From the NCBI GenBank assembly GCA_951406725.2, contig OX597830.1, forward strand, positions 41,354,001 to 41,418,000: 64,000 nt of DNA. The letters are read 5' to 3'. Position numbers and translations under genes: made by a program. Origin of the DNA: Octopus vulgaris (taxonomy: Eukaryota). The first letter of the stretch is position 1, and every line of letters begins with the position of its first letter. Shown here one piece after another: positions 40,166 to 57,094 of the stretch. Under the pieces are notes generated by a model. It saw only the letters and a list, made by a program, of their open reading frames with translations. It was not told where the DNA came from and ran no database searches.

Positions 40166-40214
40166 ATGAATCATATGTGGTTAGCATTGCTGTCTGTGTC
40201 AATGATAATAACAG
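40166..40214 (+). CDS. Coding exon 1 (signal peptide, [17 protein letters not shown]) of a Ly6/uPAR (LU / three-finger) family protein
   Basis: ATG at 40166 (in-frame ATG at 40175), hydrophobic 16-codon stretch, strong donor CAG|GTAAGA at 40214/40215 in phase 1. The G joins GA of the 56948 exon to give Gly and an open frame ending in a plausible cleavage site (ITGNG-ALQC). Confidence 0.75.
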
Positions 40215-41089
40215 GTAAGAAATACTTTACATTTACATAAATGATTGAATATCTATGATTATGCAAAATATAAATTGTATGTTTCCCCCCCATATATATA
40301 TATATATATATATATATATATATATATATATATATATATATATATATATATATATATATATATATATATATATATATATATATATATATATATATGTATG
40401 TATACACATACATATATATGTATGTATGTATATATATACATATATATGTATTTATATATATATGTATACGTATATGCATATATATATATATGCATATATA
40501 TATATATGTATATATATATATATATATATATATATATATATATATATACACACACACATGTATACATATGTATATATATATATACATGTATATATATGTA
40601 TATATATATACATATATATACATGTATATATACACACACATTATATAATGCAATATAATGATATAATATAATAAAGTATATATGTGTGTATACATATATG
40701 TTTGTATGTATATGTCTGTGCACATCTATGTATGTTTGTATGTATGTATGTATATATGTATGTATGAATGTATGTATGTGTGTATGTATGCATATTATTT
40801 GCTATGCAGTTTCTTAGTCAACATATTCATTTGTTAACCAAATATTTTTTGTTAGTGTTCAACAATTGCAGAATGTCAGATAAATATCATTTATTTTCCT
40901 TATTTTTTAATTTTTATTTATATATTTATTTTGTTATTTTGTTACATATGTGTCAAACACATTGAAATTATGAGAAGATAAATTATATTTATTTGATAGT
41001 TCCTGTATTTGTAGAATAAATATTTACATGCGTGTGTGTATATGTGTGCGTGTGTACGCACATATACATACGCACACACACACATATTG

Positions 41090-41526
41090 TGTGTGTGGTA
41101 AGAAACTTGCTTCCCAACCACATGGTTCCAGGTTCAGTCCCACTGCCTGTCACTTTGGACAGGTGTCTTCTACTATATCCTTGAGCTGACCAAAGCCTTG
41201 TGAGTGTATTTACAAGACAGAAACTGAAAAATCCCATCGTCTGTGTGTGTGTTTGTGTGTGTGTGTGTGTGTGTGTGTGTGTGTGTGTGTGTGTGTGTGT
41301 GTGTGTGTGTGTGTGTGTGTATGCGTGTGTGTGTCTTTCTGTTTGTGTTTGTCCCCAACACCATTTGACAAGTAGTGTTGATGTCTCTGCATCCCTGTGA
41401 CTTAGCAGTTTGGCAAAAGACACCAACAGAATAAGTACCATGCTCAAAAAATAAGTCAATTCATTTGATTAAAAATTCAAGTTGGTGCCCCAGCATGGTC
41501 ACAGTCTAATGAGTGAAACAAGTAAA
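41090..41526 (+). mobile_element. SINE family A with expanded internal (TG)n
   Basis: Matches the consensus. Confidence 0.85.
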
Positions 41527-41759
41527 TGTATACACGCACACATGCACACACATATACACACACACATATATACACACACATGCACACACAACATGTCACC
41601 TTGAGTAAGTTCCTTCTACAATAACCCTGAGCTGTCCTAAACTATGTAAGTGAATTTGGTAGACGGAAATTGTAGGAAGCCCATCATATTATTATTTTTA
41701 TCATTGTGCATTTCACTTGTCAAAACTCTCAATTTCGCTTGCTCTGGCTAATTCTGTTG

Positions 41760-42250
41760 TTAAGGGTCTCACACAGTCTTCTTCCACAATAGTTAACATC
41801 CAAGTACCAATTCTAAAATCCTCGCTGTCCCCAATAAAACAGTTTTCTAAGCATGTTCTCCCTCATGTTCTCCCTCGTGTCAACAGATTCCTCAAACCTT
41901 GTTGTTAATGCTCCCAGTGCTCCACCAACTACTGGGATAATAGATGGGCCCCATGATGGCTGTAGAGTTGTTAATATATGGTTAAGTGTTACATCATCAA
42001 TCATCACATAACTGTCTCACCTGTTTTTTTCACACCTACAACTTCTTGTCTATGTATGCAAGCTCACACTGTCTTGTGTTCCCCATCAGTTGCAGCCAGT
42101 CACCCAAATATAAAGGATGCAAGACTCTGCAATCTTTCATGTTTTCCTCCTGTCATTCACTTCCTATGACAATTTCACTACTGTCATCTTTTTTGTCACT
42201 TCATCTAAATAATACAAGTCTTGCTGACCACAACCGGTGTCCTTGGATCT
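41760..42250 (-). mobile_element. R4/Dong-like (restriction-like endonuclease) LINE 3' fragment
   Basis: The - strand encodes IIPVVGGALGAL...KTVLLGTARIL. Confidence 0.7.
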
Positions 42251-53767: not shown

Positions 53768-55369
53768 CTCTAGATTGTATTTTTGACTTGCTAGAAATAG
53801 CAGCTAAATTTCCCTCAACTGATATACTATCACCTTGAAAAAAAGGGAAGAATACATTAGATAATGTAGTGCTAGGATGTAAAGTAATGCAGATCTATTG
53901 TAACGAGGTCTATATTATATAAGGTGTGTATTTTTAATGTGGTAGGATGTAATTTAAGAGATGTCTGGTTGCTATTTCTTGCAGGTCAAGCAACCATATA
54001 GAGGTTCCTGCACTGGTTTGTTTAGTTTGGATCATTAAAATTCTAGAAACTAACCATTGGCTTTATGTGTGAGCCACTGAGGATCATGGGAAATTTTGCT
54101 TTGCTTTTCTTTGTTCCATTTTAATTTTTATTGTTATTTTTATGAGTAATTTTATCACAGTTTTTTTTTAACATCAAATGCTTAAAAGCCTTCAAAACTA
54201 GCCAACAACAGAAAATTATTTGTAAATACTTAAAACTTCAAAAACAAGAATTTCTTTTTTTCTTAATGCTTTTCATGATTAAAAGCAAAAAAAAAAACAA
54301 ACTATATTATAGAACAAGACTAAAAAAAGATCTAAAAACAAAACCAAAAAAAAGCAAAAGCAAAAGTTTGTCATTCCAATAGTTTAGTTACATCAACAAG
54401 CAGAGAGCCAAGAAATTATTGCCACCAAAGGCTTTTAATCCAATTATCAAAGAGAAGAGATTAGTCACTTACTATAGTAGGAAAAAAATGGACATAAAAA
54501 AACAATAAAAGCAGAGAATATTCAAAGAACATACAAATCTCCTGATATGGATTTTGGGATTTATTACCTTAGGTAAAACATACACACATACATACACATA
54601 TATATATATATATATATATGTGCATATATATACCACTCTCTCTCTCTCTCTCTCTCTATATATATATATATATGCATATATATATAGATACATATATATA
54701 TAAGTATATATATATGCATATATAGACATATATATATATGTATATATATATACACACACACACATATATATATGTATATATATATAAACATTTATACATA
54801 TATATATATATATATATATACACACACACACATATATATGCATGTGTGTGTGTGTGTGTTCACGTCTATGTATGTATATATGTGGGTATACATAGTTCGT
54901 TTAGGTCATTAAGCTACCATTTACTTTGTCTTATCCTCTCATTTATCCCCCACCTAACTTTTATCTTACACTTCACAACTAAATCCACAGACTTCCAACA
55001 CACATCTGATCTCTTCAAAGAACAGCCTTACCTGAAACCCCAGTACTCACCTCTTTTCATGGCACACGAACTTCATTTTCCTAATTTTATTATCATTTCA
55101 GTTTTATGTGTCTATGATCAGGAAAAATTAATCTTGGCAAGATTCAATCTCAGTATAAAGAATGATGGTATTCAGGAATCCAGAGATATTATGATTGTAA
55201 GGAAGTGACCCCCACCACCAAAATATCAGGCTTTCTACTTATCTTTTAGCTTTTGTCTTTCACTTGTTTCAGTCATTAGACTTTGGCCATGCTATGGCAC
55301 CGTTGAACAAATCAACTGCGGTACTTATTCTTTTCTCTGTGTACAAGACCGTCGCTACAACCATCCCTC

Positions 55370-55965
55370 ACAAGCAAATTTGATTTGCTGTTTCACATAC
55401 CTAGGAGGGGCTATCGATAAGATGGATAGAACAGATCAGGACATAAAGACAAGGATTGAGAAGATTACAGCAACATTCAGGAGATTACAGACCATGTCAA
55501 CAAACACAGAATTCAGGATCTTTAACATGAAGATGAAAACTGTTCTGTTGTTCATGTGTGAAACATGGCAAGTCACATAGTTTTCTATCAAAAAGATCTT
55601 AATGTTTATGAATAGATGTCACCAGATCATCGATTGGATAAGATGGCAAGAACAGACTCACAAACAAAGCTTTCCGGGAACAGGTAACACAGCAACCTAT
55701 TGAAACCCAGAGGAAGAAGAGAAAAAAAGGGGTTGGCCAAGACGTAACTTATAGAAACTATTTCCAATATTACAAGACAAAGCCTTGGATTAAACACCTC
55801 GAGGGAGATGCAAGCATGGAAATGGGTCACAAAATCTGAATTGCTGGCAGGTGGTTACACCTGCAAAACAACTGTAATCCATTGCCAAAGATCAAAGAAG
55901 ATGGAGATCTCTTGTTGGTACCCTATGCTCCACATGGAATCAAAGGAATCAATGAAATGATGAGT
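55370..55965 (+). mobile_element. RTE-clade LINE 3' fragment
   Basis: FTYLGGAI...DIKTRIEK...IFNMKMKTVLLFMCETW; ends CCCTATGCTCCACATGGAATCAAAGG. Confidence 0.8.
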
Positions 55966-56947
55966 GAACATGTATCATGCTTTCTCCAATTGTTTTAAAG
56001 GTTTAGCCAAATGGTCACCACTTTTAGTTGTTGATAACTGTGTCTGGTAGTTGAGCGTGTGACACTTGACTAAATTAAATCTTCTTCCGGTATGGACAGT
56101 TGGTTGGTCCAAACCAAAACAACATGGAGGCGATGGTAGCAATAGCAATGTGCACAAGAATGCCTCCAAGAAGGCCACAGTGTTTGTTCAGTCCTCTGGC
56201 TCATCAAGATAATTTTCTGAGCAACTAGTGTTGATGTGAGTGAAAGAACTATGTGCTGAGAGAGTTCTAAAGTGAAGGAAGGAAAACTATCTAGTGAGAA
56301 ATAGGTGACTGCCATGCTTTATATAAATGCCAAACCAGAAGCAGAAGGAAACAGTCCATTCAAACCAATCACAGAGAATGACACAAAAAGTGCAACCACA
56401 CAAAGTTGACTGAGCCAACTTTGAAATAGAGAAATGTATAATTGCATGTAAGCCAATATCAAACACAGAGCTGCTACAAATACCTATGTAGCCATGAGCA
56501 GGTGTAGACACTCCTTCAGACCACCTACTCTTGACCCAGAAGAGCATCCAGGATGTGACACTTAGAGTGAGAGAGGACAGCACCAGCACTTGACTAGTGT
56601 GCATTTGACTAGTACTCATTACAGCTGAGTAGACTGAGGCAAGATGGAATTAAGTGCCTTTCTTGGGGACACAATGTACTAATGTACTAACCAGCTCAAG
56701 AATTGAACCCACAACTTTATTATCATGATCCTAATATGGTAACCACTTGACTACATACATTAACAATTAACAACAACAATCATTGGAAAAAAATCACAAA
56801 GCAATTAAGATTCTGCAATTAAATGTCCTTTTATAATATAACATTCACTAATCTTACCAATTAACGCTATGACTGTCTTAAATGTATCATTCAATATACA
56901 TGGTATTTTCAGTTAATTCTTCATTTCTTTTTTTTTTTCTTTTGCAG

Positions 56948-57094
56948 GAAATGGTGCACTTCAATGCCACTTGTGCAGTGGAGTTGGCACTGATCGTCAC
57001 TGTGAATTTCATCCATTCTTTGGTCAAACAGGATTGAGAAAACCCACTAATTGTGCTTCCCAGTTCTGTCTTGCTGCCAAAGTTATTGATTCAG
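56948..57094 (+). CDS. Coding exon 2 of the Ly6/uPAR protein: (G)NGALQCHLCSGVGTDRHCEFHPFFGQTGLRKPTNCASQFCLAAKVIDS(G)
   Basis: Long polypyrimidine tract plus TTTGCAG acceptor ending at 56947; 147-nt stop-free phase 1-1 exon; donor CAG|GTAACA at 57094/57095. The pattern LQC-x2-C-x8-C-x16-C-x4-C matches the first five cysteines of an LU domain. Confidence 0.85.

Follow-up and report, generated by a model that had tools for sequence, protein, structure and literature searches.

The Ly6/uPAR (LU) superfamily is defined by a domain 60-90 residues long whose ten cysteines are followed by an asparagine that is invariant and carries no glycan (PMC6600238). LU genes are described as having three exons separated by phase-1 introns, the second of which interrupts the tip of loop 2, and a glycosylphosphatidylinositol (GPI) anchor signal encoded in exon 3 (PMC6600238). 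In molluscs, 2086 three-finger genes have been counted in 25 genomes, or 83 per genome (PMC13719153), so that the family itself is ordinary there. The unusual part of the gene studied here is a long stalk, a feature not described in the main text of that survey, which does list unusual domain combinations. The gene lies in Octopus vulgaris and its first two coding exons fall within the window, the whole 64,000-nucleotide stretch that was analysed (G000:C17:41354001-41418000). A first-pass annotation had proposed a hidden LU gene in this window from two small exons 16.7 kb apart that splice in phase. Both were confirmed at those places, with GT-AG edges and phase-1 boundaries, and they belong to a real, spliced, single-copy gene that is currently mis-annotated. 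Three coding exons encode a 534-residue protein in which a predicted signal peptide is followed by a ten-cysteine LU domain, a stalk and a hydrophobic tail. Our preferred interpretation, held with moderate confidence, is a GPI-anchored three-finger head that is held off the membrane to bind a conserved partner. No paper on the gene or its orthologues was found in the literature, subscription journals being outside coverage.

The coding part of exon 1 (window positions 40166-40214, + strand, 49 nucleotides) runs from an ATG to a phase-1 donor, GTAAGA, and encodes the signal peptide in 16 codons plus one nucleotide. It is separated by intron 1 (40215-56947, +, 16,733 nucleotides), a GT-AG, phase-1 intron rich in simple repeats, from exon 2 (56948-57094, +, 147 nucleotides), which encodes the end of the signal peptide and the first half of the LU domain with cysteines 1-5. 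Exon 2 is bounded by a T-rich acceptor ending in GCAG and a GTAACA donor, and is in phase 1 on both sides. Intron 2, also phase 1 and 13,495 nucleotides in total, occupies the rest of the window on the same strand (57095-64000) and continues past its end. Completion of the gene by a downstream phase-1 exon had been anticipated, and when the next 200 kb were scanned, such an exon, with an R-x-C...C...CN pattern and a GPI-like tail, was located 6.6 kb past the window end, where a phase-1 acceptor at L002:6590 opens a 468-codon frame. This exon 3 (G000:C17:41424590-41425999, +; L002:6590-7999) encodes cysteines 6-10 with the closing CN, a stalk of about 400 residues and a hydrophobic GPI-like tail up to the stop, and the first AATAAA follows 324 nucleotides downstream of the stop. 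One gene copy was found: a search of G000 returned two matches only, exon 2 and exon 3. As a measure of chance, a loose pattern of the first five LU cysteines was sought in all six frames of a 464-kb stretch that includes the locus, and it matched once, at exon 2. No second LU gene was found within 200 kb.

Splicing was followed in public sequencing runs labelled 'RNA?', a label that is a guess, none being recorded as RNA and tissues not being shown. The exon 2 region was partly present in 20 of the 24 runs listed, and contigs were drawn from six different runs, X1, X4, X6 and X7 for a wider stretch and X2, X4, X7 and X9 for a narrower one. Over the wider stretch, contigs ended at the predicted edges of exon 2 in two of the four runs (X4 and X7), those of X6 extended into the intron, and X1 gave none. 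Over the narrower stretch, exon 2 was joined to the first 30 letters of exon 3 in three of the four runs (X4, X7 and X9, from two studies), with no contigs from X2. The joint between exons 1 and 2, to which the first-pass annotation had pointed, was seen in one of the four runs, in a single thin X4 contig with 14 loose and 3 shared letters of the exon 1 end, an overlap that falls below the bridge threshold of 31 letters. This joint is backed by the exon 1 peptide, which matches the Octopus bimaculoides protein XP_014770861.1 at 16 of 16 residues. Run X6, from organism C, showed C>T differences at exon 2 positions 57000 and 57013.

Splicing of exon 2 to another upstream exon, which had been named beforehand as a result that would tell against the gene, holds for one transcript form and not for the gene. 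In X7, the 29 letters before exon 2 are an exact match to an exon 70 kb further upstream (G000:C17:41340784-41340856, +; L042:6784-6856), which lies 13.1 kb before the window start and has its 5' edge read from sequence only; no other match for these letters was found in the window or in 43 loci. In this one run the alternative exon is spliced straight to exon 2 and exon 1 is skipped. The exon junction of the skipped form makes a TGA in the LU frame, and its longest frame, of 388 residues, starts from residue 147. This form could be a regulatory, non-productive transcript or read-through from an upstream gene with a PWWP domain. The alternative exon also has a 17-codon upstream frame, the stop of which is formed at the exon 2 junction.

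Skipping of the signal exon probably explains the name under which the gene currently stands in RefSeq. A search with the exon 3 protein returned O. bimaculoides XP_014770861.2, a 385-residue 'myb-like protein O' that is 92% identical. This model starts at residue 147, with the signal peptide and LU domain lost, and it was probably built on the exon-1-skipping form, as the two share the same start. The earlier version, XP_014770861.1 (531 residues), agreed with the O. vulgaris protein from signal peptide through LU domain and stalk to tail; besides the exon 1 part, the LU part of exon 3 was identical at 45/45 residues and the stalk at 370/394, with 47/48 and 24/25 in the other parts. Neither version's name mentions LU. 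The gene was therefore hidden from the open reading frames available to the first-pass annotation, but not from RefSeq, where the sister species formerly had a full model. The annotation can now be corrected, as the LU domain is missing from the current O. bimaculoides model and its name misleads.

In the encoded domain, cysteines occupy model positions 4, 7, 16, 33, 38, 58, 67, 76, 80 and 85, the last is followed by N86, which lies outside a sequon, and the LU core comprises 82-83 residues. The disulfides expected of an LU domain would link these cysteines as 1-5, 2-3, 4-6, 7-8 and 9-10. Both introns are in phase 1, and intron 2 falls in codon 47 of the structure model, between strands 37-45 and 51-59, which is the tip of predicted loop 2. 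The model was built on O. bimaculoides residues 20-121, equal to the O. vulgaris residues over that span, with 33 sequences, and predicted a mostly beta, three-finger fold with a predicted local distance difference test (pLDDT) score of 89.6 and a predicted template modelling (pTM) score of 0.81. On sequence, gene structure and predicted fold, the protein is a member of the Ly6/uPAR superfamily. The proposal of such a gene, including a signal-peptide exon of its own and introns in phase 1, was upheld by the ten-cysteine frame, the introns and the fold, and the suggested structure prediction likewise bore it out. All 38 Foldseek matches listed were LU proteins or ectodomains of TGF-beta-family receptors, each with a three-finger chain. 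The best, 6gbi, which we take to be Lypd6, was the sole match listed with E below 0.001 (E 1.8e-4, template modelling (TM) score 0.62), and next among those listed came uPAR, Lynx1, TGF-beta receptor II, GPIHBP1 and Lypd6B. A TGF-beta or activin receptor, which would carry a Ser/Thr kinase domain beyond a transmembrane helix, was ruled out: the stop comes right after the hydrophobic tail, there is no internal hydrophobic stretch, and no kinase was found in the Pfam scans. The suggested profile check came out negative, as the octopus protein gave no hit to an LU-type Pfam family (QVR PF17064, UPAR_LY6 PF00021) at curated cut-offs and stayed under every one of them. Surveys of mollusc three-finger proteins may therefore miss this gene.

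After the last LU cysteine the protein continues for about 430 residues and closes with the hydrophobic tail. The trimmed stalk is 389 residues long and contains no cysteine, 22 N-glycosylation sequons (5.7 per 100 residues), 19% Ser/Thr, 13% Asn, 16% acidic and 13% basic residues, and one run of 17 Asp; it is predicted to be heavily N-glycosylated and disordered. Hydropathy stays at or below 0.81 until the last 16 or so residues, where the tail reaches 2.70 and ends at the stop. Both pattern and hydropathy at the C-terminus fit a GPI signal, which calls for small residues, then a spacer and a hydrophobic tail with nothing cytoplasmic after it; tail hydropathy was at least 1.96 in 15 of 16 related records, and the tail is likely to be such a signal. 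The signal peptide and GPI calls, which rest on sequence pattern and hydropathy, predict cleavage immediately ahead of the first LU cysteine motif and attachment of the GPI anchor some 27 residues short of the C-terminus. The stalk contains several dibasic or tribasic sites, and one basic site lies about 35 residues after the LU domain.

That last site bears on the earlier suggestion of a secreted toxin-like factor. Were the protein a secreted three-finger toxin of the posterior salivary gland, or the precursor of one, it would have the expected fold, and cutting at the basic site could free the head. Such toxins, however, which are also marked by toxicity and by expression in the venom gland, are short, secreted, single-domain and anchor-free and stop at their last disulfide, whereas the octopus protein is 534 residues long. 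The suggestion fails because of the long stalk, the GPI-like tail and an LU core that is unchanged between two octopuses and conserved in limpets and abalones; we consider it barely credible. The protein is likely not a toxin but a glycoprotein of the cell surface that extends outwards from the membrane.

A profile of four LU sequences was used to search for relatives and returned 11 longer proteins and 76 representatives at E 0.001; names were checked for 25 proteins. The best relatives came from Lottia, two Patella, two Haliotis, Pomacea, Plakobranchus and Biomphalaria, and after these gastropods followed the annelids Owenia and Paralvinella and then short arthropod proteins; no bivalve, squid or nautilus relative was found among the 25 proteins named. 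The arthropod relatives (P0026, P0029, P0038, P0048 and others) have no cysteines 7 and 8 and retain R-x-C and CN. LU core identity to octopus was 49-63% in all eight mollusc-clade rows and 46% in Owenia P0019, and invariant non-cysteine residues specific to the clade included G9-V10-G11, R14, K42, A55, L73 and P90 in model numbering. In a tree of 33 LU domains, with rows picked for near-full profile cover and close duplicates and some distant rows left out, the mollusc-clade and Owenia relatives formed one clade of ten rows (94/99, with the bootstrap not settled). The Owenia fusiformis relatives P0019, P0085, P0031 and P0036 have consecutive accessions (CAH1775126-CAH1775129), which suggests a tandem cluster, as against the single octopus copy. 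The arthropod matches also raise a role in septate-junction assembly, in which the protein would help to traffic junction components as boudin, crooked, coiled and crimpled do in Drosophila. Single-LU GPI proteins have that role in insects (PMC6600238) and the LU profile does pick up arthropod relatives, but those identified are short, unnamed, eight-cysteine proteins outside the mollusc clade, and such a role appears very doubtful.

The stalks behaved differently from the heads. In the eight mollusc-clade (gastropod-type) orthologues they were 598-1207 residues long, and no BLASTP match at E 0.01 was found between the octopus stalk and 12 other stalks, seven of them from those eight; seven stalk pairs among the non-octopus proteins do align. 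The hydrophobic tail was present in seven of the eight. A mid-stalk segment of 49-75 residues, with 29-49% identity, was common to P0003, P0005, P0006 and P0010 (limpets, abalone and an unnamed record) and was not found in octopus; it is a possible second functional site. The abundance of sequons in the octopus stalk would suit a barrier role in the epithelium of skin, gill or gut, where a GPI protein with many N-glycans would be released into the mucus to bind microbes. Mammalian LYPD8 offers a precedent, being an LU protein with N-glycans and a GPI anchor that is shed and attaches to flagella (PMC5725809). The gastropod stalks, however, carry just 0.8-1.8 sequons per 100 residues, LYPD8 is much shorter at about 20 kDa, and a single-copy, slowly changing head would suit a host partner better than a microbial one, which makes this barrier role distinctly unlikely.

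What is striking is how far the stalk exceeds in length the linkers of well-studied GPI-anchored members, with the head that it carries conserved from octopus to gastropods; this points to one old, conserved binding partner. In our preferred interpretation, the head would bind a single conserved protein, whether on an opposite cell (a receptor), in the matrix or in secreted form (a ligand or enzyme), by analogy with ligand capture by uPAR and GPIHBP1, and the stalk would be a spacer under selection for length and hydration, not for sequence. Given that the head is conserved, that the stalk sequence is not and that a long stalk is kept across the mollusc clade, a spacer is the simplest reading. 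As a bare random coil of 390 residues, the stalk would by the usual scaling law place the head about 14 nm from the membrane, and up to 140 nm if it were extended. The exon structure, exon 2-exon 3 splicing, sequence, stalk composition and conservation pattern were read directly, and partner binding by the head is the step that we infer. Several points weigh against this interpretation: the basic sites in the stalk could allow the head to be cut free, the P0013 model has no tail, the transcript form without the signal exon cannot make the stalked LU protein, and a flexible stalk can, by analogy, fold back, as the heads of six simulated Ly6 proteins stayed near the membrane at any (short) linker length (PMC9819746). 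In a bolder version, which we regard as a long shot, the octopus protein would be the founding member of a so far undescribed subfamily of 'stalked' three-finger proteins in molluscs and annelids. A single, highly conserved LU head would sit on a disordered tether that lengthened to 400-1200 residues in molluscs, and it would act in trans on a receptor, possibly a Cys-loop one, of the cell on the far side of a synaptic or intercellular gap; skipping of the signal exon would serve as an off switch.

The head could instead act in cis, in the style of sleepless, Lynx1 or Drosophila Belly roll (10.64898/2026.06.29.735401), by binding a nicotinic, chemotactile, Shaker-type or G-protein-coupled receptor in its own membrane or in trafficking, the stalk being incidental. 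QVR was the nearest Pfam family, touched at E 0.1 by 27 of the 33 aligned relatives, and among the Atlas structure neighbours of the Lottia domain, which fell in LU-type, sleepless-type or unnamed clusters (TM 0.61-0.73, below the family-naming bar), two clusters were auto-named sleepless (TM 0.73 and 0.61). Lynx1 and Lypd6/6B were among the Foldseek matches listed, and loop 2, which sleepless uses (PMC4735452), is well conserved here. On the other side, the stalks of 400-1200 residues, about 400 in octopus, compare with linkers of 5, 8, 11 and 24 residues in the modelled GPI-anchored Ly6 modulators (PMC9819746). Besides the missing Pfam hit in octopus, two Patella orthologues reached only 14.2 and 15.7 bits against the QVR cut-off of 27.3, and the likeness of fold is common to TGF-beta receptors, uPAR and GPIHBP1 and selects no function. 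Gastropods, to our knowledge, lack chemotactile receptors. Since the gene is also found in gastropods, it likely predates the chemotactile receptors described from octopus and squid (PMC10338036). The modulator of nicotinic or chemotactile receptors put forward in the first-pass annotation was accordingly not supported, given the linker length and the gastropod orthologues, and action in cis more generally seems rather unlikely. By itself the gene has no bearing on chemotactile sensing or venom; as a single-copy gene it is a defined target for a partner pull-down.

The upstream neighbour is a + strand gene that covers about L039:3503-8235, L040:4275-4435, L041:2298-2410 and one exon some 24.4 kb ahead of the window start. 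One of its exons consists of 4.7 kb of low-complexity sequence, a PWWP domain is divided between two exons (Pfam PWWP, 26.1 bits), and the gene presumably resembles MBD5/6. Between the end of its last coding exon and the alternative upstream exon lie about 11 kb. Within the window, 57266-57487 and 57562-57700 are high-copy repeats, with hundreds to thousands of contigs in each of four runs, and are probably short interspersed elements. Frames at 33344-34008, 55209-55580 and 62249-63000 look like decayed pieces of long interspersed elements and Tc1/mariner transposons; Pfam gave only a weak DUF6451 match on them, at 55209-55577.

Compared with the LU superfamily at large, the octopus gene has the same ten cysteines ending in CN, three exons, phase-1 introns, loop 2-tip intron and GPI-like signal in exon 3, but differs in lying below all Pfam cut-offs, in having cysteines 8 and 9 three residues apart, and in placing about 400 residues, all in exon 3, between domain and anchor. 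The gastropod proteins (Lottia V4AZA4, a UniRef 'UPAR/Ly6 domain-containing protein', and those of Patella, Haliotis, Pomacea, Biomphalaria and Plakobranchus) have the same order of parts, with an LU core identity, Owenia included, of 46-63%. Owenia CAH1775128/9 also share the order of parts, with stalks of about 90 residues as against 600-1200 in gastropods. Gastropod and Owenia stalks have more proline and fewer N-glycan sites than that of octopus, and none tested aligns with it. Drosophila quiver/sleepless and vertebrate Lynx1, Lypd6 and Lypd6B resemble the octopus protein in a single LU domain of similar predicted fold, GPI-anchored in them and likely so in octopus, but the three vertebrate proteins show 17-22% identity in structural alignments and those modelled have short linkers. 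GPIHBP1, LYPD8 and C4.4A (LYPD3), the first and last of which were among the Foldseek matches listed, resemble it in joining LU to a GPI anchor and to a disordered segment that is acidic or glycosylated. In GPIHBP1, however, the acidic segment is N-terminal, up to 50 residues long and in its own exon, LYPD8 measures about 20 kDa, and C4.4A, with its glycosylated, Ser/Thr/Pro-rich linker, has two LU domains where the octopus protein has one.

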